Assembly: GCA_964187785.1 (NCBI GenBank)
Contig: OZ076409.1
Coordinates: 53,880,001 to 53,944,000, forward strand
From: Amphiscolops sp. MND2022
Taxonomy: Eukaryota
DNA length: 64,000 bases
Reading direction: 5' to 3'
A program made the translations under genes and the position numbers. The notes beneath the pieces are model-generated. The model saw only the letters and a program-made list of their open reading frames with translations, did not search any database and was not told the origin of the DNA. This document shows, one piece after another, positions 2,901-26,140 of this stretch. The first letter of the stretch is position 1; each line of letters opens with the position of its first letter.

Positions 2901-4386
2901 TGTCGTAACCATCATCATCACTTTGTTCGAAATCTACTAGATTCTCCCTACGGTGATTATTCTGGTTACTGGAAGTTGCGATTAATTTAGGAAAGTTCTC
3001 TCCTGAGTCCTGGCAAAATTTACTTTTATGCCGTCCATGTGACTCAAGGTCTGGATTTTGAGTCATTTGGGTGTTTCTATCTGGATGCCGTCCATCTGAC
3101 CGAAGGTCCCATTTTGTGTTTTTAGCTTCCCTATTGCTCATAATTACGTTTTCAATGCTTGGCAATATCCTTTCCTCAATTGCTGAGTTTATAACCTCCA
3201 AAATATGAGAATTCAAGTCTGATTTCATTTCCTCTATTTTCCTTGACATTTGTGACGAAATTTCTGAGTTTATCATTCTATCAGTCTCAACGGTAATTTC
3301 ACTGTTTTCACTCAGATTAGTGTTTAGGAGTGATCTATAGTTTGGCTCATTTTGGTCTAAGGCCTGTTGCCGTCTTTCTGACTCGGGGTCAATCCCTATC
3401 TGATCAATGGCTTCTTGATCTCTATTTTCACTATTGGTATAATTTCCCAACATTACGTCTAAATTTTCAATATCTGACATTACGTCAGAGTGTCTGGGGC
3501 GTTTCTCTTTTGCCTTTTGCTTTCTAGTTGAAGGCATATCAATAAAGAATTTCGGATTTCAACAATGAATTGAATATCGCGGTAATGTGAACAGTGTGAT
3601 TGTAAGTGTATTGAATGAATCCTCTCTTATTGGAAACGTACATATATATACCAACTACTGCATGACGCTCAATATTTAGGGTGTCATTTATCAGAAATAG
3701 TCATGATGTCATTGTCTAAAATAGCATCTTCTAAAAATAGACTAAAAGGGTCAAATTAACCTTACGTCATTTGCCCTATTAACTATAAATAGCAACAACA
3801 ACAATTTGATTCTAATAGCTACATGTTAACAGCAACAATATATGCGTTCAAAATGATATTAAGCTAAATGGACCAATGGTCATTGTGGCGGCAGTATAAT
3901 ACTGGTTACTGCAATGTGATTGGTCAAAAGTAGTTCGGACAACGCGTCAACTTGACGGCAACGCTGTACCAGTTGAACGCGTTTCCTGTATATTGTCAGC
4001 TTACAGCATCAATTGATTAATCATTAATCCAACTTTGTCAATAGCAACAAACAATTTACTACAGGTCTGTGTGAAATACTAGTTCACAACAGGTAAGGTT
4101 TATCGTGAGTAATGCTACATGTCATTTATGACGGTAAAAATACAAGTAGGCGTTTGCCGTCGGGCTGACCTTAGGTCACAATATATAAAGTAAATGCGCA
4201 CAGTGACTAAATTAGGCAACGAAACAGTAAGATATTGACATGTATAGTAAAATAATGGTATTCGTGAATGTTTCTATTGAGTTCTGAGTTCTACCTATAT
4301 TGGGAGGACACCTGGGCCGGGAACGTTTGAGTCATCTTCAGGGGTGATCTGATATAGTAGACCGTCGCAGGCGGCAGCCTCCGACA
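2901..4386 (-). repeat. 3' LTR of element 1 (1486 bp); contains a copy of the gag 5' end (ORF 2869-3537)
   Basis: Near-identical to 21463-22955: about 15 substitutions plus 9-bp and 2-bp indels, counted by eye. Confidence 0.95.
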
Positions 4387-5122
4387 CTCCCCTGGGGATG
4401 AGAATGAAGGATCCCGCCTTCATTCCGGCTTCGAAGGCGTCTCTTTTTGCCAGCCTCGTTTCGTAGGATTCGCCTGCAACGTGTGTACGTTCTAAGTAGC
4501 CAAGTGTAATTTCCTCTTTGATCGCAGCGTAGTCTTTCCCGCACACTACACATCCCGTGTAATAGACATCATTTGGCTGCCCACAAGTCCTACTGATGCT
4601 TATTGCCAATCCCGTAATGTGAGGGTTGTTAATCCAATTGTCATCTTGAGGTGGCAAGTGGGTTTCTCGCGCATCATCATAAGCTGGTCTCTGGTCAATT
4701 AATGGAGGAGACAGAGGGGATTCTAAGATTGGGTTGAATTGGCTACATTGGGCTATTGGGTGATCACTAGCAGATTGCCCATAATATGTGGGGGGAGGAT
4801 TCCCAACGAACCAATCAATCAATGAATTCGAGGGTTCTGTAAACGTACTCACTGATTCAGTGGGTTCACTGATGGGCAAGTTAAGATCGTTGAGACATTC
4901 AGTTAGCTCGGTTGTCATGGCCCTTCCTGCCGCTAATTGTGGAAGGAATTCAGTATTGTATCGGTAGCAAGCCAAAACTTGTATATCGTCGTCCTCGCCG
5001 GTAGCATCTAGAATATCGTCAGCGGAATTTATGGAGTCGACGTCCATATCTTCATCTGACGACTGGTAGCTTAGATCTACTAGCAATCTGGGAAGTAATT
5101 CACAGTTGAATTGTAGAGCCAT
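4295..5122 (-). CDS. Accessory sense ORF of element 1 (~275 aa from ATG 5122; acidic/Pro-rich, CxxC motif), ends inside the 3' LTR
   Basis: Open frame 4295-5287 whose first ATG gives MALQFNCELL. Contains TCGQ...GCVVCGKDY. Stop lies ~90 nt inside the LTR. Confidence 0.65.
   Translation of the reverse strand: MALQFNCELLPRLLVDLSYQSSDEDMDVDSINSADDILDATGEDDDIQVLACYRYNTEFLPQLAAGRAMTTELTECLNDLNLPISEPTESVSTFTEPSNSLIDWFVGNPPPTYYGQSASDHPIAQCSQFNPILESPLSPPLIDQRPAYDDARETHLPPQDDNWINNPHITGLAISISRTCGQPNDVYYTGCVVCGKDYAAIKEEITLGYLERTHVAGESYETRLAKRDAFEAGMKAGSFILIPRGVSEAAACDGLLYQITPEDDSNVPGPGVLPI
4387..4393 (-). promoter_or_regulatory. Polypurine tract (AGGGGAG) of element 1
   Basis: Purine run on the minus strand immediately before the TG of the 3' LTR. 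Confidence 0.7.
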
Positions 5123-5771
5123 CTCAGCGTTGTGTCGATTGAGGAATATCCTTTTCGCAATTTTGCTAGCTTGAATTCGAGGCGACTGATTTTCAGAACG
5201 GTAGGATGAGAAGTAAACTTTTGCCGTCCGCCTGACCTTAGGTCCAACCCCAATTTTGGCGGGAATACGGCGCGGGGTTTCTCCCAAATCATAGTTTCAA
5301 CTTTTTCCTTTTTAGGTTTTGATTAAGAGTAGAGTCTCAAATAATTTTCGAGCAATTTATCTGCGAAGCTTGTTAATAGCCTCTTCAAGTTGTTTTACTT
5401 TATTCTTCAAAGGCGTCACTTGACAATTTAAGTGTCGTTCCTCTTAATTCTCTGTCAACAATTAACTTGAAAGACCGTCGGTCCGTGTGACGGCAATAAT
5501 GATGACAACCAATCAGGTGACGCTAATTTGAATGAAGAAACGTGGTGAAAGTTTTCCTAATTGTGAAATGAAGTAATTAATTTGCTGCGTTTTAGGGAAG
5601 AATAGTGAAATAAAATAACAGGGAAGTCCATGAACATTTCACTGGCAGGCTCCATATCATGGATTAGTAATGAGGAAATCTAATTAGTGCAGATGAGGAG
5701 ATGGTAACAAGAGAACGTTTTATATGTAGCCACGACGTCCAGTTGGTAAGAATAACAACAGTCATAATATT

Positions 5772-5781
5772 ACTAATAATA

Positions 5782-5859
<78 letters not shown>

Positions 5860-5869
5860 TTAATAATAA
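5772..5869. repeat. (TAA)n microsatellite, left part
   Basis: Near-perfect ATA triplet run. Confidence 0.95.
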
Positions 5870-8800
5870 GTAATCGTAATGCCAAACTACACCCAATTTT
5901 ACACTGCGCAGGACAAATGACACCGCTAAGTAAATATCAGTGCCAAGTTACACCTTTATTATTAAGATATTAAGTGGGGTATTTGGTATGTGTAGATTGT
6001 TTCCAAAGGGGTTTCTCGTCCTTAAGAATAACCTGCAAAACTGTTTTCCGCAAGCCATTTAAACCCATACAGTGGCACACTAGTTCCACAAAATCTAACG
6101 CAATTCTTATGATGACATACAACACCAGTTTATCACCCCATGATTAATCACCAGCACTCAATTTTCAGTACTAGCACATTTCCAATCATGAGATAGATTT
6201 GGTGAAAGTTAACCAAATTTACGAGGTTTTTTCCCCTAATTTGGGAATAATGCTTTAGTTTCGACGAAATTAATTTCAGGAAAAACAATTGCTTGGTGAA
6301 ATAACTGATACCGAAAGTAATAAAGCTCTCGTTAAACTTTTTAAAACTAGGTACAAAATCGTGCATTGAAAGAACCATGAGCGGAAATGGGATCTTTTTT
6401 GTTAATTCGCCCCACCGATTCAATTCTCACCGCTAAACGGTTAAGGGAAATTATCAATGAATTATTAAACTACAATCGAATTGGAGTTCATGCGTTCAGT
6501 TTTTTATGGTTTACATAGTAGCAAACAACCATTAGCATGAAATTTATCTGAAATGTTTCATGTTCCAATTTTCAAGAACTTTCTTTTTTTTTCTAAAATT
6601 CCGAGTGAAAATTAACAGAAAAATTTCGAACAGTTTAGTTTTTTTTTCGAATTCCGTACGAAAGTATATTATTCTTCACGGAAATTTCAACAACGAAGCC
6701 CCCCCCAACACGGAGGAACATTTTAATCTTTAAAAGTATTCCACTCATATGAACATCAATAAAAAGGTAAATACCAAATAACATAAGAGCAAATAACTTA
6801 AGAACAAAATTAATTTCAAATAGCATAAAAATAAAACCGAAAACCTGGTTAAACAATCAAATTCACGAAACTTGATTTGTAATTTTCATACTTTTTCCAG
6901 GTAATCTTTTGAATTGTGAATGATTTTGACCAGTAAAACTTTCTCGTAAGCAATTTTATGTTTATGTTTGGTGAAACTCAATTAATTTTTATGTTATTTG
7001 AAACTAATTTTGTTTTTATGTTGTTTGCTCTTATGGTACTTGGGAATTCACCTAAATAAAATGTGCTTTCGTGCTGGGGGATTCACAAACAAGGTGTACC
7101 TGGGAGAAATAATTATAACCCATTTCAGGTTACAATCTCGCAGCAAGGTTCAGTAAGTATTATGTCGACATCGTTTGCTGAGAAATTTAATTATTCAATC
7201 TCCATTTCAACTGACTGACAAGCTGAAATGAATATAATTGGTGAAACTATTGGCCAATAAAACGCAATTGTGCATGTCTTCAAAAATTGTCCTCTGATAT
7301 TAAATATTGGAGTTGTTTGTCCTTTGATTTTTAATGCGGGGGTTATTTGTCTTCTGATATTAAAAATGGAGTTACTTGTCCTTTGGTATTTTTAATGCGG
7401 GGGTTATTTGTCCTCTGATATTAAATATTGGAGTTACTTGTTCTCTGGGATTTTCAATATAGGGGGTTATTTGTCCGCTTCTATTTATATAGGAGTTATT
7501 TATTCAAACCTCTGGTATTCAAAATAGAGGTTGAATTCTGGAATAAATATTCTGGAGATTATCTTTGTCAAACTTTGCAGATTAATACGACCACCTTGTT
7601 TCTTAATTCCCACCAGGCAGTGGCCAAAAACTCCGAAAGTTTATTTATTTATTTCAGTTGAAAAAATACGCAGATAAGCAAAGAATGAAAATTCAACCGG
7701 TGCTCTCGTTTCGGTCCGCCCCACGTTTTAAAATCCTGAACCCGCCCCTAATTATTTTCGATAGAAAACATCAATATCGACGTTGTAATTGAAATCAAAT
7801 AAATGAAGTAAATTCAGTTTAATTCACAAACGAACATGTGCTTTTGTGTTGCGGGAAATACAAAACAAGGCATACCTGGCAGCAATAAGAATTATGCATT
7901 TCAGGTTACAATTTTCTCGCATTAAGGTTCATTTAGAATTATGTCGACATCGTTTGCGATGTAATTTTGGTCCAAAAACAATAGTGATGTCGTCAAATAA
8001 TTTTTATTTCATCTGACTGACAAGCTGAATTTAATTTAATTGGTGGAACTCTCGGCCAATAAAAACGCAATTATGCATGTCTTCAAAAAGTGTTTGAAGC
8101 ATTGCGAATATTGCTAAATGAAGCAAAAGGATATTATAAAAAGCTTTGCGCTTTGGAAAAATAAATCGATGCTTCAGGTATGAGAATGAAATAATAATCC
8201 CAAAAACAACCATATGCTGATAAATGCTGCAATACGACAGGCTTGTAATCTTGGAAAAAATGAAAGTTCTATTAGATGCAACTAATACTTATTTGGAAAG
8301 GATTTAGTAATGTAATTTATACGTTGTTTTGAATTTGCCAATCAAATATCTAAACAAACTAATTTTTGACGTTTGTCACGCGGGAGAGAAACGTTATTGG
8401 ATGATGGAAAGAAACCAACTAATTTATATTTAAATAAAAGTTGACCAACGAACGTCACGAAGTCTTTCTGCTTTCTAGCGTGACTAACGTCAAAAAGGTT
8501 TTCTGCTTCCGCAAGTTCGCAGTTTCGCATAGTGATTGTAATAGATTACCCATGTTCACCCTTGATTGACACAATTACAAATCGAAATTATTTAAAGTGA
8601 TGAAGTTTTCATTTAAAGAATAATCCTACTTTAAAAAAATTGAATGTCTGACAAGCTGAATTGCAAGATCCAGAGTTGTTTTGAAACAATTATTTTCAAA
8701 TAGTTGAAACTTTGAAAGCTCAAGAACTTTCATGCATTCAGTTTTTCATGATTTACATAGTAGCAAACAACCATAAGAATGATAATAATCTGAAATGTTT

Positions 8801-9820
8801 ATTGTTTCAATTTTTTGTTTGAAAAACAGCATTAAAAACCTTATCAAAACAAGAATTTGTTTCAAGAATGAAATGACATTTTTCGGGGGCAATTTTTTAT
8901 ATTTTATATATTAAACAACTTTGATAAAAATTACAAAAAAACTTTCTGATGGGGGTGTTAATTCTTATTTCCCTCATGAGTTGCACCTTGTTACGAATCC
9001 TCCGATTTCACGGAATTGATTCCAAAACGTGCTTTCGTTTGGAGTGGGTTCAAAAGTGTGAAATCATTGGCGAATGCGGCAGCAAAGAAATTTGAGCATA
9101 AACATCATTGATCAAAAATACACAAGAACATGCCATTCTGATTTCGGGAGGGGGGTTAATTTTTATCTCCCCCATGAGTTACACCTTGTTACGAACACCC
9201 GCCTCCCCAACTCAAGAGGTACCTGGGAGAAAATTTCATAACCAATTTCAGGTTACAATTTTCTCGCAACAAGGTACCTCTAGAATTTTAGAATTATTTT
9301 GACATCGTTTGCTGTGAACACTTTGGTTCAAAGTGAAAGTTCACATGTCATTTTGCATACAAGAATTGCAGCAATGGTATACGTGCCAGAAGGAGTAATT
9401 TGTCATCTAATTTGCCGTCCGCAGAACTTTTCAAGCAGCACAAATACTGTACCATATCTAACTTCTTATACACCAATAGTCTGTGCGGTAATTGGTGTGA
9501 ATGGCCTAATTAACGATGATGCGCCATAATACTACAAAAACATTCAGAGTGTAGTTTGTCCTTAAGATTATCTGGAAGGTGGTTATTTGGTATTGGGAAA
9601 AGGACCTTAATAATTCAAGAATTACGCGATCAATTTCGTTCAAAGTTTGGCAAATTTCTTTTTTAAGGGTTTTCAGCTGCTTCCCTAAATTTCGTTTTCC
9701 TACTACCCGTGGAAGCGAAGATTCAGGATAATGCCAAACTACACCCCAAAGAACCCCTCAGCTGGTGGTGTTTGGCATGTGGTAGAGTACAACTGTGGGG
9801 TTATTTGGTACTGCGTTTAC
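5870..9820. mobile_element. Non-coding TIR insertion (PIF/Harbinger-like) nested in the (TAA)n tract
   Basis: Imperfect TIRs GTAATCGTAATGCCAAACTACACC / GTAAACGCAGTACCAAATAACCCC (17/24 matches), TAA on both sides. Internal direct repeats at ~7060-7290, ~7835-8090, ~9215-9330 and at ~6485-6570 vs ~8730-8810. No long ORF. Confidence 0.55.
7287..7530. repeat. Tandem minisatellite of ~30-33 bp (TTGTCCTCTGATATTAAATATTGGAGTTA-like)
   Basis: About 7-8 diverged units visible. Confidence 0.8.
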
Positions 9821-9871
<51 letters not shown>

Positions 9872-9890
9872 TAATAATAATAATAATAAA
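9821..9890. repeat. (TAA)n microsatellite, right part
   Basis: Near-perfect ATA triplet run. Confidence 0.95.
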
Positions 9891-10532
9891 CAAAATAGAG
9901 TAATAAAAGACTAAGTTGTGGCGTTAACTTGACAGTACGAATTAGTAATTAGTCAGTAGTGTGATAAAGAGTATGGGAAGTAGTATAAAAGTACATTTGG
10001 TAACAATTAATGTCTTGCCGTCAGGATGACTCATAGTCAAATTTGCTCGCGGTGGTTGAATAATACTTGATTGTGAACTAGTAATACCTTGCCGTCAGGT
10101 TGACGCTGAGTCCACTACCTTGTGCTGCTGTATTAGAACCTTCCACTTATATCAATTGTTTTCTCGTGAAGTATCACTTGAGCTAGACTGTATTACCCAG
10201 TGATCAGGATAGTCTCTCTGAGCTCGAGTTACACTTTGATAGGGTCACCATACCAGAATTTTCAACTTTTCGCCAATCGAGACTTTCGAATTGTTTATCG
10301 ATTCGAATTTGAATTCTCATTTACTTATTCCTCCTTTAGTACAATCTTCCCCATACAAAAGATCTTACTACACGTCACGTTCGTTCAGACACAAAATTCT
10401 GTGGGAAGGATTTTAACAACATTCTGCTTTTCTCCATCGTGAAAGGATATTTGGAGTAGTGTTGCCAACTCAAATAACTCTCTTCTACTTCAACATACAG
10501 CAATTGGGGCACATCAATTTTGCTGATCAAAT

Positions 10533-13500
10533 ATGGATTCAACATCAGGTTGGTTCCTTTTTAAAGTGTTAAAATTAGGCTTGATCAGGGCTCGTAATTT
10601 TAACTAAGTTACATCGTGAAATGTTTGCTGTCAGCATGAACACTAAGTCAAAGAACTTCCCGAAGAAATTTAAATGCGGTAAGATGGATTCATATTCAGG
10701 AAGTGAACCGCGATTATTTATCTCATTCCGTTTAGGTAATGAGTCGAACGGCCAACCTCTCCAAGTTGCTGCTGACGAAGAGAAAATGGATACTAGCGAT
10801 TCGTTTGTCACTGCTGTCTCCAATGTTGGGAATCCTTCTCCAACAGGGGCCAATACTTGCGGTCTACCTGAGTCAGAAGTCAATGCCACTAGCCTTGAAG
10901 GAGTGATAGAAGTAACTGCAATGAGTATTGAGGAACGTGAGACGGTCACTGACGCGTTGCAAGCCAATGAAACACTGGATCCCTCAGTTGAGGTAGCACA
11001 AGGGTCTTCAGCTGTTGAGCCCAGTACTGCAACCACTCCAGACATTGCTGCCGGGCCTCCCAACGTTGAGAGTAGTAGCACCGACGAGAGCTGTGACGCA
11101 CACATCGCCAGGAAATGGGAGCAATGGGGCACTTCACAAGAACCGTGTACCTCCAGTCAAGCCGACGGCAAAGACGCTAAGTACAGTGAAAGCGTGATAA
11201 TGGAATTAATACCTGGACAGCGTCCCACAGACTACAAAGAGGCTGACAATGACTCTGTGTCTGAAGTGGCATTTTTGGATACCCCAAAACTACCACTAAA
11301 AAGCAATTTGAAGTCTCTGTATCGACCTACTGAGGCTAAGGTTCAAAAACTCTGCGTTAAAATGGGAGATACGAGAAGAGAACATTCCATATCTGACTAT
11401 GAGACCAAAGGACTTTCAACTTCGGAGGGATACTCTGCCGACGAATTTGAAGATGCTGGTCAAGATGATACCGTCATCCGGGTATCACCGAATAAGTCAG
11501 GAAGCGACCGCGCACAAGAATCAGATGGGCCGATTGGATCAACGGTAGCTGAAGCATTGTATGCGCCTGTGCAGTCAAATATGTTCCGAGTTAGTGACGT
11601 GGCCAGTAATACATCTGCCGATTTCCCTGAGGTTATGCCACGGGTTGCTCAATTATCTGCCAGTGGACGTGCCTTAATGAAGGAATACTTTGAAGAAGCA
11701 ACTCCTGTCCGTTTGCCTCCTGGGCATTCTACTCTCGCTCTCAACGAGGGACAAGTTAGCCACATGCTAAAGGTTTTGGCTGACGAAGCAGTGAAATCGT
11801 CCCTGAAGGCCATGGAAAACTTAGTCCACCAAGCCAGTCGACTGAACCTTGGGCAGCAGACGTCAACCGCTTTTGGTATGCCTATGTCAAGGCGACCTTC
11901 TTCTCGAGGTAGCGATATTGACTCGCAGTCCGGATTCTCCTCAGGCCATGCCAGTGATACTAGCGGAGCCATCAAAAGTAATGATGATTTGGGCAGCATT
12001 GGTTATGTCTATGAACACTCCGACCTAGAAAGCCAGCGGATCACTCTCCCTCCAGCAGGTCCATCCGGAAGCCGTCATGCTGACCTTGCGTCCCCAGAGG
12101 TCTCTACTCGTGTGGATAGTCCTGGAGCGCAGACCTTGGCTGGACTTAAGGCGGAAGCAGTTGCTGAGAAAGTCAGGTCAAGTTGTCGGAAAAAACAGCG
12201 CAAGGCGCCTGCTCGGTCCGGTGGGGGAAATAGACATCACGTGACTCGAGCCTGCAAAATGATGAAGGAGGCTTATTTCAAGGGGATGGAGTGGACCAAG
12301 ACATTTGTGTCCGGACCAGTAGACCCACGCTGGAACCCCCACAAATTTTACTGCCAAATATGTAAAGGCAACATATCCATCTACGGACGAGGCGCCAGGG
12401 AGATACTCCGTCACCACGCCACTGAACGCCATCTCAGGAAAGATCAGAGGTGGCGTTATGAACATCTCTCAACCAAAGATCCCATAACAAAGCAGGTGAA
12501 GCACTACGTTCGCGGGAAAGACGGCCGACTTCTCACTCCTTATGAACTCCAGCTGGAGTTACCCAAATTCATTGGAGTTGAACTCATTGATATCGGAGAG
12601 AAATTGCCGTTCTACGATGAGTACCTACAAGGAACCGACTACATGGCTTCGTCATCGGAAAATTGGGTCCGAGTGCAGATTTCAGTACTAGGCAATTATT
12701 TACGAAGTTACGGAGACATCAGTACATTGAGGGAATTTTGGCGAGACATTGGAGTAGTAGTAAACCACCAGTCTCTCTTCACTGATTTCGACTGGAGTAA
12801 AGAACGTTTGTCGGTGAGTAAATTCTTCTAGTCTTCTTGACCTTGGGTCTTTCCTAGGAACGTTGTATTTATCGTTCTTTTATCGTATCATTGGTGTTTT
12901 CCAGGTTCTTTTTCACCATCTCTTCTTACAAGTGATGCGCGATGTGGCTAGTCACGTGATCGCATCGGGAGAATACTCACTTGAGTTCATCAAGCAAGGT
13001 GTCTGCCTGCTGGTTTTCGTGCGCTTCTGGAGGAAAGACGAGTTGTGCCGTGTGTTCTTAAAGCGGACCGGACGGGTGTTAGGACAGTCGTCAGCTGAGT
13101 TGGGCCTAATCAGTAACGTAATGGCTGCCGTATCCACAAGTCCCAACATTATCTGCTGTTCAGGCAGCTCATTGGAGAAGATTCACCTCTTCGACAATTC
13201 ACCTTACTGTGAACATGGACTGCAATGTCCATTCAGATTTGAGGACTTTTCAATAGCCAGCCTAATGCACAAGGAAAGCTACAGCGTCTTTGGGCGGATC
13301 GATTTCCATTCAGTCCTAAAGTATTTAATTGTTTTCTTGGGCGGATGCTTGGATTGTGATTGGACAATGATGACACCAATACTAGCTAAGGTTAGATCCT
13401 GTCTTGTATTCACCTAGTAGAATTACTTGTCTAATGAGCAAGGGTTAGTAAGTTACGTGACTTCAGGCCGTACGAACTTGTCAGATTGAATTGGCTACTC

Positions 13501-14966
13501 TGCCCACACTCTGTCAGGAACTGTTAACGAACTGGACAAAGATCACCACTTATTTGAATACTCACGCTCCTCCTCACGAAATGATGGGAGCTCGAAAGCA
13601 GGTAAGATACTGCCGTCACTCTGACCACTGGTCCAACAAGATCTGATTTGATTTCTTAACTGCTGTTTCAGCCGCAGGACCTAGAACGTGCAATGATTCA
13701 CGATGAACTATTTTTGTGCCGACTTGAACTTTTCTATCGCTGGGTCAGAGATTGTAAGTCTTGATAGTCAAACTTATGCATCCGTGTTTGGTTTTGTTTT
13801 GGGCATAATCAATGTCTCGTTTAGATACCACTAGCTTTGTGCCGCATCTTGTAGAGAGACGAGACCACGGGTTCCATGTGTACAGACAACTGTGCCAATT
13901 CTTGTTCAAACTGGGCAGGCGTTGCATTAAGCCAAAAAGCCTCCCACAAGAAAGTGACCTGTCCGGAATCCTCAACATAGCCGTGTCTGACGCCAAGGCA
14001 CTAAGCGTGACTGACTTCATCGCGCGCTCCAAACTTGATCAGAGACTGAAAGTTGCATGCAAAATAAAGGCTGACAAAGAACTGAGCGACAAAAAAGGCA
14101 ATCGATCCAATCTGCCTAAACTCATTAAAGAAGCCAAGGAGGAGTTCGGTCGACTTGGGCGCAGTTATGTTGCGTATCTATTTCACGCGACCCAAAACAA
14201 TTTGCAGCTGACGTCTGACATAGTGAAGGGGTTGGGATCATTTGACCTCGAAATTATGTTCCGGTCTCCCCTCAGCCAGGCCTTGTACTGCTTTAAGCAG
14301 CTCTTCCGTAGTTTCCATCTCCGTGGGTATTTTCAGGCGGACGACGAGTCTATTCTTACAGAGGAATAACTGTCATTTCTTGATGAACTGCGAAAAGAGA
14401 TGCCTGATTTGGAACAACCCAGAGTCATAATTCTTGATGCTGTCTCGTACATTTCCAAGCATTCGGCCTTGCAGTCTCGGCCCCATCTCACTCGAATTTT
14501 CAAATTGAGTTGTCTCTGCCTTGATGAGAGTTATACCAGCATGCCAGTAGTGAAGTTTGGTCCCGTCCGCACGGATGATCCTAAGAGCAAGCTCATAGAT
14601 ACCATTTTGCCAGTTCAATCCTTCTTTATCAACGTGGGACGAAGTATAGATAGCCTTACATCAGCCTCTTCAATTGCCAAATTCTTGGCCTTTGAGCCTA
14701 ACTTTGGAAATTCTGCCTTTAGTGACACATATTGCCCTTGGGACAGTCTTGATCAATTCAACCGCAATACGATCCTTGCTACTTTGAAGCCCGAGTCAAA
14801 GAAAAGAAAATTAGACTCTCGGAAATTGAGGTTCCAAAATTTGAAGCGGGGCAATAGTTCTAAAAGCCTTCCTCCACCCAGCGCTAAGGGGTCGCCGATC
14901 AAACGTCAATCTGACAGTGAGCTGCCTACTAGTTCTAGAGTTCGATATTTTGATAACGATTGTTAA
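10533..14966 (+). CDS. Antisense, spliced zinc-finger (BED-like) gene inside element 1. Exons 10533-10548, 10736-12813, 12905-13390, 13467-13601, 13672-13753, 13825-14966; ~1312 codons with one premature TAA at 14367
   Basis: Five GT..AG introns with phases 1,0,0,0,1 join the separate ORFs into one frame. Contains the CQIC-x14-HH-x4-H finger. AATAAA at 15131. The first mini-exon is the least certain. Confidence 0.8.
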
Positions 14967-15150
14967 CTGTACTTTATGTACATTTGTGTTTATCTGTATT
15001 TATGTAATCTTTCGTTTGTTTGTACTTTTGAGTTTTTCTGTTTATATAACCGTGTCATTTGTGACACCAAGGTGAAAAGACAGTCTGGGCCTAGCAAATG
15101 ATTAAAGAATCACAAAAGATATGTCAGGCCAATAAATTCACGTTTTCTGT

Positions 15151-18100
15151 CTAGTATCTGTATTCGTCAGTAAAGTTGGGGGTAGGATTGGGGCGTAAGT
15201 TATATTTCCCTCCCCTAGGACTTTCGTTTTCTACAACGTAATCATCAGTTTCTTCAATTAATACATCGGGCACGGTTGTATCGTTCCCTCCGATATTTGA
15301 AAAATCAGAATTTCCATCCCTGGGAGAGTCCCGATTGGGCAGATTATCGTTTCCCAATTCAGTACTTTGTTGCCGTCTGCTGGACTGACGGTCTTCATTA
15401 GGTAGGTCGCGCGCATACTGATCAGAATTATCAGACTCAGTATTTGTTTGCCGTCGCGCGGACCGAAGGTCCGCTTCAGCTACTTCACGCGAGTGTGAAT
15501 CAGAATCCGCAGCGTCAGTATTTTCTTGCCGCCGCGTGGACCGAAGGTCCAAATCCGTGATTATAGCGTCTTGTTCATCAAAGTGAGTAGGAGAATGGTT
15601 GGGAATGATTTGCTGTTCAGTACTAGGAGGGAAATCATCGAAATCGCTTTCCCATGAAATAATGTACAGGTCGTCTTGCGGGATATAATTTCATCATCAG
15701 CTTGTAAATTTCCTTCAGGACGAGTATCTTGTAAGGTAGTATTTGGAGTATATTTTCGAAGGCGTATTCGGTGTAAAATTTGCGTTTTGTTAGAATTAAG
15801 TTTGCGCACTATATAATTCTCGTTAGGAAGGACCTTTTCGATGACATATGGTCCAATCCATCTAAATTCTCGAAATGGGATTTTAGAACTCTGATGATCT
15901 GCTAGTGGCTGTAAAATGAAACAAAAATCTCCTTGTTCTAAGGGAGCTGCTTTAGCCTTCCTGTCGTAATAGTCTTTGTACTTTAAGTATGATTGCATAA
16001 TGTTTTTCTTTGTTTTATCGATAAGAATTTGAGTGCGGCGTTGGAGTTCTTCAGCAAAGTCAGTTGTTGGTATGATTTTCGGGTTGGGGTTCAGACCTAA
16101 CCTATGGTCCAGGATGTTATAAGGCACTCTGCCATGAAAAATTCTGGATGGCTCGCAACCTAGGCTAGAGTGGTAGGTTGTATTGTAATTAAGGACAGCC
16201 AAAGGAAGGTATTTATGCCACTGGCGCCTGTACTCTCCTGATGCCATTTTGAGGTTTCCTTTAAGGCTGGCATGGGTTCTCTCTAGTTTACCTATGGTCT
16301 GAGGATGCTTTGTGGTGGCGCATTGAAGTGTGATGCCCAAAATTTTTGCTACTTCTGATACTACGCGAGACGTAAAAGCCGTTCCTTTATCTGTGATAAG
16401 TGTCGTTGGTAGATACGTGTGTCGGGTCATGATGTCAATGAGAACTTTTGCTGTACTGATGGCCGACGCGTCCGTTACGGGATACGCGAAGAGGTATCTG
16501 GAGAAGACATCTAAAGCTGTTATGATGTTTTCATATCCTCCACTTGGTGGTAGATTGGGTAAAAGGTCAATTTGTAAGGCATCTTCCGGGCCTAGATCCC
16601 ATTCAGGCAAATTTAGTAATTCGGGTGTGATTGATGCGTTAGCGATTCGTTTGTCTTTGATGCAGATTTCGCACCCTTGGACCCATTTTTCGACGATTTT
16701 TGCAACGCCCGGATAATAGTATTTTTGACGTATTTCATGAAGCATTTTGGAAATTCCCGGATGTTTATTCGCAGTTTCATGTAAGGATTGGAGTAATTCA
16801 GTAACAAGATGTTTTGGTAGTAACACCTGACAAAATTGTACACTGCCGGTTTCATCGTAATAGTCTCTGTAGATAATATCTGCATGAACGGACAGACGGT
16901 CAAGTTGACGGCAGTAATGTCGGTAACGTGGATCTTGCTATAAGATGGTTTCAGAGTATTCTTCTTTTTGTAATTTGAGGCGTAGTTGTTGCAATGTGAT
17001 GTCATTGTTTTGTTCAATAGCCATGGTGATTGGTTTCGCTAGTTTTTGCAAAGTTGGAGTCTGGATTTGGGTACTTTTATGTAGGCTGAGTTTATCCAAA
17101 GTAATATCAGGTAGTTGATTTGTAGGATTTGACCTGGCCTCCTTTTTCCGTTGCCATAATTGTTCCTCAGTTTCTTCATCATCGTCTGTATAGAATATCT
17201 GGTCCTCTTCAGTCACTCCCGCTGATTGGACATTAAGTTCAATGGGTGTAGTGGGAATGTCCTCTCGTATGCGGAGTACAAGTTTCTCTTTGGGACAGAT
17301 TTCGAGACGAGAGAGATAATCTGCGGCGGTGTTGTTTTTCCCTGGTATATGGGCAATCGTGAAGCTGAACTGAATAACATAGTCACACGCATTCCATAGC
17401 GTTGGTGGAATAGTTTTCGTCTGAAAAAAGCGAGGAACTGATTTGTTGTCTGTTAGAATGATCACCGGTGTCGGGGTCCCCCAGAAGATGTGTCCAATCT
17501 CCTTGAAGGCAAAGAATATCGCTAAGAATTCTTTCGCATAGATGGACATTTTCAGCTGGGCGGGACTAAAGGTCTTGGATCCATATGCTACTGGTGCAAA
17601 GGCTTTGCGCGTTGAACTATATTTTTCCATTGGATCATCCTCGATGAGAACTGCATAACCTGCTGCCGAAAAACTAGCGTCTGTCATCAGGGCTATCTGT
17701 TTGTTGGGCAGGGGTTGTTTGAGTGCGAGATCACAACATCGGTCAAGAGCTTTATTGATCTCGGTGAATTGTTCTAACAGTTCGGGAGTCACCATGACTT
17801 TGGCATCATTTTTCAACAGCTTGAAGAATGGTGTTAGCTTTTCAGAGAGCCTTGGAATGTAATTGCAATAGTAGTTTAAAAATCCCAAATATCGCTGAAG
17901 TGCTTTTTTGGATTTCGGAAATTTCGTTTTCTCTAGGAAGTTTTGGACCCTGGGTCGGTGCGGCCGCACTCCCTCAGGAGTGATGGTGCGTCCCAGGAAG
18001 TCAATTTCTTTGGCTCCGAAGTGACATTTGTGCATCGTTAATTTAAGACCTGCGGTTCTGATGCATTCAAAGGTTGCTCGCAAGTTGTTGATGAGTTGAG

Positions 18101-20312
18101 TGGCACTGTTGGCGGCAATCCCAATGTCATCGACATATTGAGCACATTGATCCGCTTTAATCACTTTATCTAGGTATTCACGCATGAAACTTGAGAAAGC
18201 TGATAGGGCGCGGCTCAAACCTTGCGCGAGTCGGCGGTAGGCAAAAGTTCTACTGGCGAAAATGAACGCCAACATCTCTATGGACCTCTGGTCCGCCATC
18301 TGCAGACAGTGATATGCCTGAGAACAGTCGAGCTTGCAGAATAATCGTTTGCCTGCCATGTGTTGCGCTGCATCCGTTAGTGTACTGACAGGATGGTTGT
18401 TGTTGATATAATCGTCGGAAATCAAATTGTTGATTTTTCGGAGGTCAACCAACAGTCGTAATTTGCCATTAGGTTTTTTCTGGGCAAAAATGGGACTCGC
18501 ATATTTGGAAAACGGTAGTGTCGTTATGATCCCATAGCGGTGGCGTAGCGCTAATTCAACAAGAATGTCTTCTTTGAGGTTGATAGGGGTAGGTAGGCTT
18601 TGACTGTAGGCAGGAGAGTCGTCTTTAGGGGTCAGTGTGACTTTGAAGTCCTCGTTCATACCTATATCAAAGCGGTGCCTTGCAAAAATGTCGTGAAACT
18701 CGACAAGTAATTCTTCAATTTGGGCAATTTCAACTGGATTTAGCGTTGAGTCAATCCAGTCAAAATTGGCAGGAAACTGTTTCCTGGACTCAGGGTCATC
18801 CTGAGGGTTGAGTTTCTCTGAATCCTGAAGGCTTTGTAATTCCCTGAGGATTCTTTGTTGTATGGGTGTATGTGTCTGAGTGTCTCCTGGTTCTTCTGGG
18901 GTCGGGAACCAATAGTTTTCACTGTCTTCGCTAATCTTCGGGGATTTGATGAGGCTGCTGGCATAGTATGCAGCATTTTCCGGATTATCCTTCAAAAAGT
19001 GCCAGGTGGTCACCGGGTCGATGGGTTTGACATATTTCATCTGTTCTGGGGTGAGAACAAAGAAATTTGCAATGTGCGAACCTCTTTTGATAGTGTAAGG
19101 CTGGTCATTGAAATTGTTGACATGGATCGATACCTGACCTTGGGTCAGTGTGACGAGAGCAGCGCAGAAGGTTATATCACCATCTTCTGCAAGGTCATTG
19201 CTCGGTTGAAGAATTCCAGTGACGTTTGTGTCGTCATATAGTTGTGAGGACATGGAGACCATATGTCTGTCGTTGGGGGGAATAGTTATATCCTCCCGTG
19301 CACAGATAGGTTCCATGACATTGGTGTACTTGTGGTCAGCTGTTTTCAATTGCATGGAAAAGAATGGGAAGTTTAAAATTCCCTGTCGCATGTCCAATAT
19401 GGTATTGTTCCGTTGCAGGAACGAGAGACCAATGAGCGGACTTGAAAGTTTTTCCATGACAATGAAGATCTCATGGAAATCGATGTCCCCGACCTCGAAT
19501 TTGAGTTCAACTGTGCTCTTTGGATTCTCCAGCTGTCCATTAGCTACCATAATTTGGAAGTTGGGTGCCGGGCCCTCTTTAATTATGAACTGAGGGGCTA
19601 GTAATCGGATTTTACGTAGATGAGCTTCTGGGATCGCGCTAGATAGGGCTCCCGTGTCTACAAGGCCATCTAATGTTAGTTCGCCAAAATCCATTGGAAA
19701 GTAGAGCATGCGGCGTTTATATTTGCGTCCCAAGTTGGTGGTCAACGGGAAATAGTCAGGTTCACCATTTCGTGAGATCAACGTGTTCACATAGCGTTCT
19801 TCCACTGTTGCCGTCAATGTGATCAAAGGTCCATTGTGTGGAAGTTCTTGTGTGATTTCCTCCTGGATTGGTGGGTGGTTGTTAATCTGCCCCTTTTGCC
19901 AGGGGTCCACAGAGGCCATGGATAGTTTAGTATGCTGTAGCTGATCAATATGGTGTTGATCAGGTTCGATATCTGCAGCATTTTTGGTGAAGTTTTTGTA
20001 GAAGTGTAGATGATGCTGGTTGTAGATTTGAACGTCCCAATAGGGGTCGAAACCAAAGTCTGGGTCGGGATAATAGGGATTATAGTTTTCTATGAGGGGA
20101 AGAGTGCGAATAGTCATAGTGTTAGAGTGCTGTCTATTGAACTGAAGGTCCAAATTGTGTAAAATGGTAGGAGTTTGTTTCACCTGCTGCTGCCAGTCAG
20201 CTGATGAATTTTCTTTAATGGGGGAATAATATTCTGTATAATAGATAGTAGGAGGGTCAGATATGATATGTTGTCTGACGCGTAGTTTTTCATTAATCTG
20301 GAGTCGTGGCAA
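15151..20312 (-). pseudogene. pol: pol of element 1 (protease, RT, RNase H, integrase); a few frameshifts near 16940, 16830 and 15690
   Basis: Protease LVDTGA; RT YVDD; RNase H TDAS...TDNK; integrase HPG..CEIC, QIDL/DVFSR/TDKG/LERTH and GPY module. Confidence 0.95.
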
Positions 20313-20314
20313 AG

Positions 20315-22108
20315 CTAGTTTTTTGAATTTTTGAGAATAGAAGTAGTGGGTTTGTTATTGGAGTCATCTTGACTCATGGGATTTTCCTCGGTTTTGGAAT
20401 TATCCAATTTGAGGTTTTTGGGCTTGAGGTGGGCTCCAGCGCCTTTCCAACACCGTTCCGCCGGGTGATTCGTTTTGTCGCAAGTCGGACATTTGGGATA
20501 TTCCTTCTTCGTATCCTGCCCGCCATTGCGCTTTTGTTCCTCCTTTCTCTTGAGTTTTCGGCAGTCATCTGTGACATGTCCCGGCTTTTTGCAATAGTTA
20601 CAAGTGATATTCGGGTCAATGCCGGATGAAAGGAGACCAGTTCCCGGTCGTGTTGCTGTGGGGGCAGTGGACATTGTGGGGACGTGAATGTCGTCACCTT
20701 CCTCAAGTCCATTCAATTCTAATTCTCGTTCGAGATGTGTGACAATCTCTTCATACGTAGCGTTTTCAAGTCGCGACTTGTTGACTGAACGTTTCAGTTT
20801 GGGTGGTAGTTTGGCGTAAAGTAAACTGTCAATCATTGCTTGGGCATGTTCCCCAAAAGCTTTTTCAGCACCTTGGTTTAGTTCTTTAAGGAAGTCAGGC
20901 AATTTCACAGTATTTGGATCAAATACCAATTTGTGCCATTTATGTTTGGCGGTTGCCTGAGATTCGGGTTTGACATATTTCCTACGGAAGACTGCTAGTA
21001 TGTCCTCTAGGGTTTGTCTGTTGGTTGAATTGATGTTGCGAAAAGTTTGTAGGGCGTTTTTGCGCAACAGAGAGTGGAGATGGTTGATTTTCATTGTTTC
21101 CGTCATGTCTGGTTGCATCTTTATCATCGTGTGAAAAAGATCTTCGAACAGTTCGAACTTTTCAGATTTCCCGTCAAACGTCAGTGTGGTCGTACTGACT
21201 GGGCGTACCATCAGAGTTTGTGATGGTTGTTTCGTGTTCATCCCCAGAATGACATCTGCAAGACGGTTGATGGGGTCAACTGGGGGTTCGCGGGGCGTCT
21301 CCTGAGTGTTAATTGGAATTGGATTTTGCTGAGCTGGGAGGGTTGTTTCCAGCGTATCGTCAGTGCTGGGATTTGGAAGGGGAATAGTGTTTCGGGATTG
21401 CATGGGCCGTCCGGTCAGGAATTCTGGGACCATATGTGGGGTAAGGTTGGCTCCTGTCACCATGTCGTAACCATCATCATCACTTTGTTCGAAATCTACT
21501 AGATTCTCCCTACGGTGATTATTCTGGTTACTGGAAGTTGCGATTAATTTAGGAAAGTTCTCTCCTGAGTCCTGGACCTGTTGGCAAAATTTACTTTTAT
21601 GCCGTCCATGTGACTCAAGGTCTGGATTTTGAGTCATTTGGGTGTTTCTATCTAGATGCCGTCCATCTGACCGAAGGTCCCATTTTGTGTTTTTAGCTTC
21701 CCTATTGCTCATAATTACGTTTTCAATGCTTGGCAATATCCTTTCCTCAATTGCTGAGTTTATAACCTCCAAAATATGAGAATTCAAGTCTGATTTCATT
21801 TCCTCTATTTTCCTTGACATTTGTGACGAAATTTCTGAGTTTATCATTCTACTAGTCTCAACGGTAATTTCACTGTTTTCACCCAGATTAGTGTTTAGGA
21901 GTGATCTATAGTTTGGCTCATTTTGGTCTAAGGCCTGTTGCCGTCTTTCTGACTCGGGGTCAATCCCTATCTGATCAATGGCTTCTTGATCTCTATTTTC
22001 ACTATTGGTATAATTTCCCAACATTACGTCTAAATTGTCAATATCTGACATTACGTCAGAGTGTCTGGAGCGTTTCTCTTTTGCCTTTTGCTTTCTAGTT
22101 GAAGACAT
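20315..22108 (-). CDS. gag: gag of element 1 (597 aa, two CCHC knuckles)
   Basis: CNYCKKPGHVTDDC and CPTCDKTNHPAERC knuckles; lies directly upstream of pol. Confidence 0.92.
   Translation of the reverse strand: MSSTRKQKAKEKRSRHSDVMSDIDNLDVMLGNYTNSENRDQEAIDQIGIDPESERRQQALDQNEPNYRSLLNTNLGENSEITVETSRMINSEISSQMSRKIEEMKSDLNSHILEVINSAIEERILPSIENVIMSNREAKNTKWDLRSDGRHLDRNTQMTQNPDLESHGRHKSKFCQQVQDSGENFPKLIATSSNQNNHRRENLVDFEQSDDDGYDMVTGANLTPHMVPEFLTGRPMQSRNTIPLPNPSTDDTLETTLPAQQNPIPINTQETPREPPVDPINRLADVILGMNTKQPSQTLMVRPVSTTTLTFDGKSEKFELFEDLFHTMIKMQPDMTETMKINHLHSLLRKNALQTFRNINSTNRQTLEDILAVFRRKYVKPESQATAKHKWHKLVFDPNTVKLPDFLKELNQGAEKAFGEHAQAMIDSLLYAKLPPKLKRSVNKSRLENATYEEIVTHLERELELNGLEEGDDIHVPTMSTAPTATRPGTGLLSSGIDPNITCNYCKKPGHVTDDCRKLKRKEEQKRNGGQDTKKEYPKCPTCDKTNHPAERCWKGAGAHLKPKNLKLDNSKTEENPMSQDDSNNKPTTSILKNSKN
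20318..20324 (-). promoter_or_regulatory. -1 ribosomal frameshift slippery heptamer A AAA AAC at the gag/pol junction
   Basis: In the gag frame directly before TAG. A -1 shift opens the pol frame (CTA GCT TTG CCA...). Confidence 0.8.
21445..21462 (-). promoter_or_regulatory. Primer-binding site TGGTGACAGGAGCC.. of element 1 (tRNA not assigned)
   Basis: TGG starts immediately after the LTR-terminal CA and lies within gag codons (D-M-V-T-G-A). Confidence 0.75.
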
Positions 22109-22955
22109 ATCAATAAAGAATTTCGGATTTCAACAATGAATTGAATATCGCGGTAATGTGAACAGTGATTGTAAGTGTATTGAATGAATCCTCTCTTATT
22201 GGAAACGTACATATATATACCAACTACTGCATGACGCTCAATATTTAGGGTGTCATTTATCAGAATTAGTCATGATGTCATTGTCTAAAATAGCATCTTC
22301 TAAAAATAGACTAATAGGGTCAAATTAACCTTACGTCATTTGCCCTATTAACTATAAATAGCAACAACAACAATTTGATTCTAATAGCTACATGTTAACA
22401 GCAACAATATATGCGTTCAAAATGATATTAAGCTAAATGGACCAATGGTCATTGTGGCGGCAGTATAATACTGGCTACTGCAATGTGATTGGTCAAAAGT
22501 AGTTCGGACAACGCGTCAACTTGACGGCAACGCTGTACCAGTTGAACGCGTTTCCTGTATATTGTCAGCTTACAGCATCAATTGATTAATCATTAATCCA
22601 ACTTTGTCAATAGCAACAAACAATTTACTACAGGTCTGTGTGAAATACTAGTTCACAACAGGTAAGGTTTATCGTGAGTAATGCTACATGTCATTTATGA
22701 CGGTAAAAATACAAGTAGGCGTTTGCCGTCGGTCTGACCTTAGGTCACAATATATAAAGTAAATGCGCACAGTGACTAAATTAAGCAACGAAACAGTAAG
22801 ATATTGACATGTATAGTAAAATAATGGTATTCGTGAATGTTTTAATTGAGTTCTGAGTTCTACCTATATTGGGAGGACACCTGAGCCGGGAACGTTTGAG
22901 TCATCTTCAGGGGTGATCTGATATAGTAGACCGTCGCAGGCGGCAGCCTCCGACA
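21463..22955 (-). repeat. 5' LTR of element 1 (1493 bp); contains the gag ATG (22108) and a TATA-like run near 22211-22219
   Basis: Direct repeat of 2901-4386, followed by TSD CTGAT. Confidence 0.95.
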
Positions 22956-25129
22956 CTGATTTTTGCTTTAATGCGACAAATTACTTATCTTTGTCACTCC
23001 ATGATGGCTCTTCATCAGAAAGATATGCGCTAAGCAACGTATTGGCACTCACTGTTGCAATATCAGACACTATAAGAAATTAATGTTATAAAATTATAAA
23101 GTGATGATGTCCGTTTCTACAAGAGATCATGATTTCTGTCCCTGGATGATCACCGGAGGTAATCTTCTGCCACAATGCGACACTTTAAGTGCTCCAATAT
23201 GACATCGTGAAACCGTATTATTACAATTTTGTCCTTGCAGGAGAATGAATTTTCAATATGATGGAGCAAGCCAGGAACGGCCCAAGTCGTTGCCCCACTC
23301 AAAGATAACATCCAAACTTTTTAAATTTGCGAAGGGATTCGCATAAAACTGGAGAACCTCTATTTTCCCAACTGGGAACATCAAAAAACTGATTTTGCAT
23401 CTCATGTAATCTCATGAGATCAGTCAAGAACCAAATCCGATTTGTTAATCTTGTGCAAGGTCCAGGTATTTGCCTCGATTTCGACCCAATCTCAATTACA
23501 ATAATTGATAGACGCAAAGACAATGATTTCTCGAATTTTTATGTGGATACTCTCCTTCTCGCAGTATTCACTTAGACTGTTACCTTTCATTGCCCACTTC
23601 GGTCTTGAGCGTCCTAAGGAAGCCGGGAATGTGGAAAAAATTACGCTGAATTGATCTCTCAGTCGGAGAACCACGGGTTTTCCAGAAGCGTCTAGAATGG
23701 GTATTTGTGCCTAGCGCGAGATTGATATTGTCTTAAAATAAATTTCCAATTGTTCCGTCAAGTTGATCATGAAACCATTTATTTCCAATTCGAAAACAAT
23801 TTTAGTGAAAATATTGAAAAAGCTCTGGTTGAAATTTCGAAGAAAGAGAATCACCCTGCTCGGTGAATGAAAAGCCTGAAACATCTAGTGTTCAAAGAGA
23901 CAGCAAGGCTCAGTTGTCAGAAAAAGACTTCCAATATATAACATACGAAATCGAGAATGGACGGTGAAGAGAATCAAAGATAATGACGATACCCAGAAGC
24001 ATCTTCTAAAGTTGACAGCAAATAACCGCGAAAATCGATAGTTTAAACTGAAACGTCAGTTTATAACTTTTGTGTCGAAAGAACAGACAATTTCAACGCT
24101 TTTTTTGAAATCTGTTTGCTATATTCGATTTTTTTATATTGTAAACGTTAGACCAGATCTCACGCTCGTGCCTTCAAACCACACAACCTACCCTCTAGGC
24201 CAAATATTAAGTGTTCGTGTACGTGTAAGTAAGTAGTTTCAGTAGTTTCTACCGGAAAATTTTGAAGAAAAAATGCTATCCAAAAGAACCAATTTGAAAC
24301 TAAGGATTTTCAGTTTCCGAAATGTACATGCTTAACTTCGATTAGAAATCATTAGATATAGCAGTTTGAGAGCATGTCTGGTTGTTTTACATTTCCAATT
24401 ATAGTTGCGGATATCAGAACAGCAAGTTCAGAAGCAAGAGTCCGAGTAGTAAGGTCCGAACTTACGTTCTGAAGGCTCCTGTTTCAACATTGACGAGCTA
24501 TGTAGTGTTTCATACTGTTACGGTCCCACTTGCACATTTTGGCATACAGTTTCACTCAGTTTTACAGTTTTGAAAAAACCTAGAGGCACGAAAAGTTGGT
24601 TGTAATGCTGGACCAATTTTTTTTAATTCATAAAAAGGTGACTCTTGCAAACTCGTGCAATTTCGACTTGAAAGTTTGTGGTAAATGTAGCGTGATGAAA
24701 CGTGCCTGATAATTACAGTGACGACATCGCCCGACCACAGAATTTATACGTAGTGTCCATTTTTCAACAGAGTTGATCACGCCGCCACTCAGCCTGGTGG
24801 TTTGGATGCGTGCTTCACAGTTCGGTTCACCAGCACTGAATCCATTCCACCGAGAACTAAAATTTTTACCTAGAAAACTTGACGGGTTGAGAATCCTTTG
24901 GGGAACTTTCGGCACTATCAGACTTTTTCCGAATACAATAACTTTTCGATTATTCATTTTCACAAATTTGGTTCTTTAATATTTTCAGTTCCGCCCTTTC
25001 CGATATTTTTGGCACTTGGAAATCCATTAGAAGCTCCTTAAAAGCCACCTTGAACGAAAAAATGCACCGAAAAATAAATGATATTCTTGTCAAAGAAAAA
25101 TCCATCAGTGGACGGTCTTATACAAAAGT

Positions 25130-25948: not shown

Positions 25949-26140
25949 TGGTGCGACCAAGAAAATTCTTCTTTCTCTCCCATTCACTTCACAATTCTAC
26001 AATTGTTGTACACCTTTTCTCGACTTTCTCATTCGATATTTTTTTGTTCGACAAACGGTTTCTCCACCTCTCAATATCGCCTACCGTTATTAACTTCAAC
26101 GTTGCAACCAATTTCTATTTGAAAATGATTCGTGTTGCTA

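Follow-up and report, generated by a model that had tools for sequence, protein, structure and literature searches.

An intron-containing antisense gene of probable transposase origin in a Gypsy retrotransposon clade and in a CMC/EnSpm transposon of Amphiscolops

The stretch of DNA analyzed here (the window) comprises 64,000 nt of the genome of Amphiscolops sp. MND2022 (assembly GCA_964187785.1, contig OZ076409.1, forward-strand positions 53,880,001 to 53,944,000). It contains, on the minus strand (2901–22955), a Ty3/Gypsy long terminal repeat (LTR) retrotransposon, and on the plus strand, antisense to the pol gene of this element, an intron-containing gene that had been predicted from the sequence alone (the original prediction). 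Re-reading of the coordinates and of the frame reproduced the predicted structure, in which five GT-AG introns separate six exons (16, 2078, 486, 135, 82 and 1142 nt) that join into a frame of 3939 nt. When this frame is followed exon by exon, the only stops are a single nonsense codon at 14367 and the terminal codon at 14964. None of the introns has a length divisible by three, and each contains between one and six in-frame stops. The gene has the following features:

10533–10548, plus strand: exon 1, 16 nt, with the ATG; coding in some clades and untranslated in others
10549–10735, plus strand: intron 1, unusually conserved, with an alternative in-frame ATG at 10684
10736–12813, plus strand: exon 2, with an acidic, Ser/Pro-rich, fast-evolving region, a basic cluster, a C2H2-type zinc finger (12352–12432) and a helical domain
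12814–12904, plus strand: intron 2, with one motif copy at 12831
12905–13390, plus strand: exon 3, 486 nt; its predicted fold is that of an RNase H-like core of a transposase, with the catalytic Asp not conserved
13391–13466, plus strand: intron 3, a GC-AG variant in loci L046 and L047
13467–13601, plus strand: exon 4, 135 nt
13602–13671, plus strand: intron 4, precisely absent in two lineages; its motif copy (13611–13633) is mostly kept among subfamilies
13672–13753, plus strand: exon 5, 82 nt
13754–13824, plus strand: intron 5
13825–14966, plus strand: exon 6, helical, matching the insertion domain to C-terminal part of the Hermes transposase; private stop at 14367
15131–15136, plus strand: AATAAA, present in the window copy, not conserved

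The original prediction had named unconserved splice dinucleotides as evidence against the gene. Instead, 329 of 330 such dinucleotides were intact in an alignment of 33 copies (35 had been fetched; L013 and L033 were left out as rearranged or partial), the sole loss being the intron 5 acceptor of L018. Therefore, the splice sites are not chance occurrences. The faster divergence proposed for introns was observed for introns 2 to 5: across five divergent representatives, 14 of 256 interior dinucleotides of these introns were kept in all, versus 8 of 8 splice dinucleotides. Identities to the same representatives were 67–82% for exons 3 to 5 and for those stretches of exons 2 and 6 that are conserved, 45–62% for introns 2, 3 and 5, 60–70% for intron 4, and 86–91% for intron 1. 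In 20 far more distant loci (29–47% protein identity in exon 6), intron 2 has GT-AG ends in 19 cases and exon 3 is 486 nt long in 18, with a GC donor at intron 3 in two loci. Taken together, conserved GT(GC)-AG ends, exons that keep the frame and the faster divergence of the introns characterize these intervening sequences as spliceosomal introns. Intron 4 is gone without trace in four loci (L037, L040, L042 and L044), in which exon 4 runs directly into exon 5 at the junction that had been predicted, and is retained in the sister lineages of both pairs (L037/L040 and L042/L044). The nesting of these pairs among intron-bearing sisters on the exon 6 tree indicates two independent losses, and their precision suggests that spliced RNA was reverse-transcribed. 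From this evolutionary pattern, we infer that the antisense gene is spliced.

The nonsense codon at 14367, for which a comparison with other copies had been proposed, is private to the window copy, being present in none of 33 others. Every exon is open in 10 of the 33 copies, all of them within the divergent group. For the conserved exons, the ratios of non-synonymous to synonymous divergence (dN/dS) were 0.00–0.08 (L036/L037), 0.03–0.08 (L042/L044) and 0.03–0.04 (L045/L047), comparable to the values for pol between subfamilies (0.02–0.13); most ratios of the gene between subfamilies were 0.02–0.09. Higher ratios were obtained for the window copy versus L020 (0.09–0.31) and for near-identical copies (up to 0.35). 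In the window's subfamily (20 copies), each of the 22 nonsense sites is private and one of 43 frameshift sites is common to two copies. Synonymous and non-synonymous variants number 227 and 95 among those shared between copies, and 252 and 489 among the private ones. The private lesions and the synonymous excess among the shared variants indicate that selection acts on the replicating lineages, and that individual copies decay after insertion. In the window copy, both pol and the antisense gene are decayed. As judged from these comparisons, the spliced gene is almost certainly real and under selection.

The linkage of the gene to the retrotransposon was assessed from both sides. In 70 of 75 gene-anchored loci, pol is directly convergent with the gene, as had been described for the pol stop at 15151; in one of the other loci it lies beyond an insertion, one locus is truncated, and three are without pol. 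Conversely, all of the 20 loci that were chosen by the dUTPase in pol (from 150 listed) carry the gene, in agreement with its assignment to the antisense strand of the retrotransposon. A sister lineage without this cargo, wanted as a control for the motif analysis, was not found among these 20 loci. Trees of the reverse transcriptase (RT; a quick version) and of exon 6, based on 40 loci with enough coverage, agree in their deep clades and show swaps within clades. In one such swap, between the backbones of L023 and L030, the synonymous divergence (dS) is 0.09 for the integrase and saturated for the cargo. By these criteria of position and sequence, the antisense gene belongs to the element as an integral component that is kept by selection; the element is organized as follows:

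21463–22955, minus strand: 5' LTR, TG...CA, with the target-site copy CTGAT at 22956–22960
20315–22129, minus strand: gag, starting about 215 codons within the 5' LTR; the frame runs across the primer-binding site (21451–21462)
15151–20354, minus strand: pol, encoding protease, dUTPase, RT, RNase H and integrase; interrupted in the window copy
5850–9820, strand not assigned: insertion of about 4 kb in a (TAA)n tract, absent in other copies that span the site
4295–5296, minus strand: second accessory open reading frame (ORF), 333 codons, in sense with pol and extending into the 3' LTR
2901–4386, minus strand: 3' LTR, 98.3% identical to the 5' LTR, with the target-site copy CTGAT at 2896–2900

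The TG...CA ends of the LTRs, the CTGAT target duplication, the primer-binding site (kept across clades) and the domain order, with gag followed by protease, RT, RNase H and integrase and an extra dUTPase between protease and RT, place the element in Ty3/Gypsy. Its standard size is 14–16 kb, to which the insertion at 5850–9820 does not belong; this insertion is made up of various repeats and has one short direct repeat close to both ends (5878 and 9730). The layout with gag starting in the LTR (21463–22129) recurs in elements E028, E037, E042 and E045, and paired LTRs with 97–100% identity were found in eleven further elements. The second accessory ORF contains a CxxC pair, is conserved among clades at 25–68% identity and has no match in Pfam. 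In the 1.07 Gb host genome, each protein query gave about 7,600–9,100 first-look candidates, figures that are not copy numbers. Three gene copies spaced by 14,673 bp in the L055 region (G000:C7:62495290-62526654) suggest a tandem array of elements sharing LTRs. Another decayed element (L106, 1199–5720), with a pol 48–63% like that of the window, also carries the antisense gene. A flanking ORF resembles a DEG/ENaC channel, which points to an animal as the probable host. The window further contains a second Gypsy element (25534–43350), unrelated or at most distantly related to the first, with 363-bp LTRs (98% identical), a strong C-skew and an env-like ORF that matches Monjiviricetes_fusion (E 3e-21). 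A 15-bp tandem array in inverted arms (53419–53698) and a 130-bp hairpin (49502–49631) are probably small non-autonomous elements.

The predicted protein has about 1,300 residues. Its zinc finger, at the end of exon 2 behind the basic cluster, has the form CxxC-x16-H-x5-H, with C77 and H97 invariant and C80 and H103 near-invariant, and this region gave a weak C2H2 hit in Pfam for 12 of 21 members. Above the cut-off, Pfam contained nothing for any exon or for 51 homologues, sequence searches of the PDB with the gene product were empty or returned noise, and hits in the Atlas, at low recognition, were no more than leads. Comparisons by hmmsearch and hhalign with hAT ORFs of the same genome gave no match, with a reference set that was mostly of the Ac/Hermes type and sparse for other hAT subfamilies. 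Profiles of Dimer_Tnp_hAT, BED and DUF4371 did not match either; the last of these gave no signal anywhere, controls included. The homologues retrieved by sequence searches were all unnamed proteins from ENA that lack Pfam domains, none of which was traced to another organism, and the best 150 of 799 hits in a profile search were all unnamed and at most 419 amino acids (aa) long.

Indications of the origin of the protein came from predicted structures, which for exons 3 and 6 have pLDDT values of 58–60. The exon 3 model (pLDDT 58) consists of a helix, three strands, a helix, a strand and a helix. Hermes transposase occupied ranks 2 to 7 in its Foldseek search (E 0.014–0.024), and residues 149–265 of Hermes came second by VIA (Z 6.2, root-mean-square deviation 3.2, 103 aa). 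The exon 6 model (from L023) matched residues 264–575 of Hermes at rank 25 (Z 5.0, root-mean-square deviation 4.8), and with 140 aa this alignment was longer than any other of the 50 matches listed. The two Hermes matches are thus consecutive, and the hAT hypothesis had been stated before the fold search. Three points weigh against this assignment: each match stays below the thresholds of trust (no E of 0.001 or lower, no Z of 8 or higher, pLDDT 58–60), the exon 3 model fits ISCth4, a transposase of the IS256 type, as well as it fits Hermes (Z 7.0 versus 6.6), and Foldseek gave no match for the exon 6 model. Of the positions inferred for the DDE triad, which were placed from the fold plus known hAT motifs, the first is variable, the second is an invariant Ser and the third is hydrophobic but variable; a near-invariant Glu (exon 3 position 27) is located close to the first of them. 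Because these positions are not conserved acids, the protein is likely no longer a transposase. The predicted succession of domains, in which the zinc finger is followed by an RNase H-like core, a helical insertion and a C-terminal region, would be that of hAT transposases (Hermes; PDB 2bw3, 4d1q, 8edg). In contrast to these, the protein has no Pfam or profile match, its catalytic acids are not conserved, and it carries an extra, disordered N-terminus of 450 residues. Judging from the models, the gene product very probably descends from a DDE transposase and probably from one of the hAT type; it is likely a hAT-type transposase that carries a zinc finger and is catalytically dead.

A transposase-like predicted fold could also belong to an active or recently nested DNA transposon, a hitch-hiker in the retrotransposon that is selected for its own mobility. 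The exchange of cargo modules between backbones (L023/L030) and the presence of the gene in a second type of element (see below) would fit such a passenger. However, the gene has the same place and orientation in 70 of the 75 gene-anchored and all 20 pol-anchored loci, it is not bracketed by an inverted repeat of at least 40 nt (short terminal inverted repeats were not searched), no invariant Asp or Glu occupies the inferred catalytic positions, and the deep gene trees agree with RT. This explanation is largely refuted and has next to no chance of being right. A second alternative is that the gene benefits the host, as a transposase-derived regulator that was spread passively; domesticated dead transposases are common as host regulators (10.64898/2026.08.24.746577). 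This appears quite improbable in view of the near-neutral decay after insertion, with conservation only along replicating lineages, and no host locus was established among the 75 gene-anchored loci (the ends of one truncated copy and of L063 being unchecked).

The two ends of the gene deserve separate consideration. The donor of intron 1 is kept in every clade examined, both its donor and its acceptor are conserved in 19 of the 20 distant loci, and an ATG lies exactly 16 nt upstream of the donor in L036–L041, which supports the exon 1 of the original prediction. The interior of intron 1 is also highly conserved (88 of 174 dinucleotides kept) and holds an in-frame ATG at 10684, 52 nt upstream of the acceptor, and thus the start is ambiguous between 10533 and 10684. 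As a sole start, the ATG at 10684 was considered since the peptide recurs in many homologues, and a DNA element plus acceptor was judged likelier. Codon 7 of this peptide is never TCN and codon 9 almost always xCG, and 67 of 69 loci keep the AG, in a comparison whose search pattern had ATGG and GGAAG set beforehand. This codon usage points to constraint at the DNA level. By sequence, the ATG at 10684 is a possible alternative start, and intron 1 likely holds regulatory DNA elements for promoter-proximal control. Several GGAA/TTCC words and an ATGG word, with similarity to ETS and YY1 sites, are kept in all clades in intron 1. At the other end, the AATAAA at 15131 that had been assigned to the gene is indeed present in the window, but it is not conserved: an AATAAA within 330 nt of the stop was found in 23 of 76 loci and in none of L021–L035 (a few decayed loci being mis-anchored), and it was rejected as the poly(A) signal.

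A dispersed DNA word, (TGCC)GTC-N5-GAC-N5-GTC, occurs 21 times in the window, always within the element (3029 to 22746), compared to 0.12 expected occurrences; a count of the element versus 48 kb of flank gave 16 versus 0. The sites are spread over the LTRs, gag and pol, the region upstream of the gene and two of its introns (2 and 4), with a cluster in the integrase tail of pol (15371–15550), and in intron 4 the half-sites are mostly kept and the spacers variable. The word is found in both orientations, which fits recognition of DNA better than of RNA. Full-length elements of other clades contain variants, namely GAC-N5-GTCC (21–31 copies in five elements, about 1 expected), GGCC-N6-GGCC (2–5 copies in four, 0.1 expected) and GGAC-N8-GAC (5–7 copies in two, about 1 expected). 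These variants were found in the same data in which they were counted, so that the weaker counts are exploratory. The second Gypsy element of the window is without these words. Among loci with an integrase 86–92% like that of the window, GCCGTC-N5-GAC sites number 7–10 with a window-type cargo (six loci) and 0–2 with a distant cargo (four loci); in these ten informative loci, the GCC prefix tracks the cargo and not the similarity of the integrase.

The gene is also found outside LTR retrotransposons. L058 and its relatives sit in a 35.3-kb DNA transposon, whose terminal inverted repeats start with CCCC and are flanked by the duplications AT/AT and TT/TT. Terminal repeats starting with CCC, a 2-bp duplication and a tnp2-type transposase identify it as a CMC/EnSpm element; the transposase matches the Pfam families DUF1258 (3.9e-9), Transposase_21 (0.0018) and DUF4218 (0.0034), and two ORFs have weak SET domains. 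At least three near-identical copies exist (L140/L129/L099/L098/L100; G000:C2:29298732-29334034), of which two are 99.6% identical, and L060 has the same right end. This carrier has no gag, RT or integrase core, and the gene in it is open and selected, with non-synonymous and synonymous differences per site in exon 3 (pN and pS) of 0.12–0.15 and 0.81–0.87. Arrays with an 88-bp unit in these elements hold GAC-N8-GAC-N8-GAC, corresponding to the word present in the integrase tail of L057 and L061, two relatives borne by LTR elements. A remnant of an integrase tail downstream of the gene in L058 indicates that the transfer was likely from Gypsy to CMC. Outside E045, in its flank (L110/L111), there are 13 matches to GAC-N9-GAC-N9-GAC and a tandem repeat of 160 bp, possibly representing another array-bearing element.

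The original prediction did not extend to the probable origin from a transposase, to the motif system or to the second carrier. Based on the gene structure, the selection, the fixed presence in the clade, the motif enrichment, the clade-specific variants and the second capture by a DNA transposon, we propose, with a probability of about 0.5, that a captured, disarmed transposase is used by the element as a sequence-specific, trans-acting activator or anti-silencing factor. An intron-containing transposase gene would have been inserted once, in ancient times, head-to-head with the end of pol, and would then have lost its ends and its catalytic residues. A separate spliced mRNA would be made from the strand opposite to the genomic RNA. 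By established LTR biology, antisense introns would escape splicing of the genomic RNA; on the latter, they read CT...AC and would therefore be copied along with the element, with an occasional precise loss via cDNA of the spliced mRNA. The zinc finger and the transposase scaffold may bind arrays of GTC/GAC half-sites as a multimer, and the acidic N-terminal region may recruit activating or anti-silencing factors, in trans, to copies with the cognate word. The protein would thereby keep the element transcribed despite silencing by the host. More tentatively, the system can be viewed as a portable animal anti-silencing module, in which a dead hAT transposase and its cognate word were captured once by a Gypsy clade, had their introns sheltered in antisense, diversified into clade-specific pairs of protein and word, and were later taken up by a giant CMC transposon, where the word was amplified into arrays.

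Several observations speak against this proposal. The association of the cargo with the GCC prefix could be explained by linkage, and many motif sites adjoin the gene and could simply travel along with it. GGCC-N6-GGCC was found in two separate cargo clades, so that there is no one-to-one map of motifs and cargoes, and a very young recombinant (L074, LTRs 99.96% identical) combines LTR words of one type with a cargo of another. The 88-bp arrays of the CMC elements may descend from a captured integrase tail. The imperfect match between motif type and cargo tree, including the L074 recombinant, would be expected if the word were bound by a host factor or by Gag or integrase, and the protein served the element otherwise, for example by tethering integration complexes to chromatin, in nuclear import or in protection of the cDNA. 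This alternative seems less likely, because the CMC carrier retains both gene and word without gag, RT or an integrase core, and because the two orientations of the word favor recognition as DNA. In addition, activation and repression are not distinguishable from sequence. The anatomy would be identical if the protein bound the word as a self-limiting repressor or latency factor, like HBZ of HTLV-1, which is antisense, spliced and down-regulates its provirus (PMC10186651), and motif copies are located inside transcribed genes. However, the absence of lesions in lineages that leave descendants and the retention of the gene by a DNA transposon both suggest a gain for the carrier, and the long acidic N-terminus appears to resemble an activation region. 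Repression thus has a rather small chance of being the function of the protein.

The proposed activator or anti-silencing function has its closest counterparts in plant DNA transposons. VANC proteins of VANDAL transposons are sequence-specific anti-silencing factors, the targets of which form family-specific tandem repeats (PMC5735166), and in Spm (TnpA) and AtMu1, regulators are derived from transposases; transposases and dead derivatives act as sequence-specific activators (10.64898/2026.08.24.746577). Shared with the VANC and TnpA systems are an intron-containing accessory gene encoded by the element, conserved domains plus a fast variable region, a probable derivation of the regulator from a transposase, and family-specific short words, which are concentrated in the element and have been multiplied into tandem repeats. 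In those systems, plant DNA transposons use their own proteins, the activity of which was shown by experiment, whereas here a retrotransposon carries a putative foreign transposase derivative without homology to the VANC domains (no Pfam hit to DUF1985 or DUF287 in the gene product or its homologues). By inference from these analogies, the gene may work like VANC and TnpA, as a member of neither family.

Retand antisense ORFs of plants and the spliced HBZ gene of HTLV-1 come nearest to the present case among known systems. In position, the gene resembles the antisense ORFs between pol and the 3' LTR of plant Tat/Retand elements, Grande and RIRE2 (PMC11963269; PMC7264820). Retand-type elements are likewise Gypsy elements with the antisense gene in nearly all copies, with predicted DNA binding and with family-specific repeats close by; their ORFs are without established function, the domains that they encode, TRP28 (PF04195) among them, have not been traced to an origin, and the word "intron" is absent from both papers. 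The present gene differs in its five spliceosomal introns, the predicted transposase-like fold, the dispersed gapped word, the probable animal host and the second carrier, and neither the gene product nor its homologues have a Pfam hit to TRP28. HBZ of HTLV-1 and APH-2/3/4 are also antisense, spliced regulatory genes on reverse-transcribing elements, and the spliced and unspliced forms of HBZ differ at the N-terminus (PMC10186651), as the products of the two candidate starts would. However, HBZ is a small bZIP protein of an exogenous deltaretrovirus and is driven from the 3' LTR (PMC10186651), whereas the protein described here has about 1,300 residues and is encoded by a gene with five introns and a start well within the element. 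Captured accessory genes in invertebrate Gypsy elements are known from planarian Burro (PMC6431247) and bdelloid LTR elements (PMC5408684), and the excerpts of these papers note no antisense, intron-bearing or transposase-derived accessory gene. A further candidate precedent, PMC12477816, was rejected on the content of its excerpt. The literature searched, to which subscription papers, Repbase reports and bioRxiv supplements did not belong, contained no case of an LTR element whose antisense gene has several introns and descends from a transposase.

Introns are normally lost in retroelements, but five of them persist here across a clade with differences of up to 70% between its cargo proteins, documenting an antisense route by which whole spliced genes can be carried. 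The antisense accessory genes of LTR elements have been without established function; the present gene brings a likely origin together with a candidate target word, and its function is thus testable. If the proposed function is true, sequence-specific counter-silencing, so far demonstrated in plant DNA transposons, would extend to animal retrotransposons and would move between classes of transposons, and the natural variants of protein and word would yield a specificity code.

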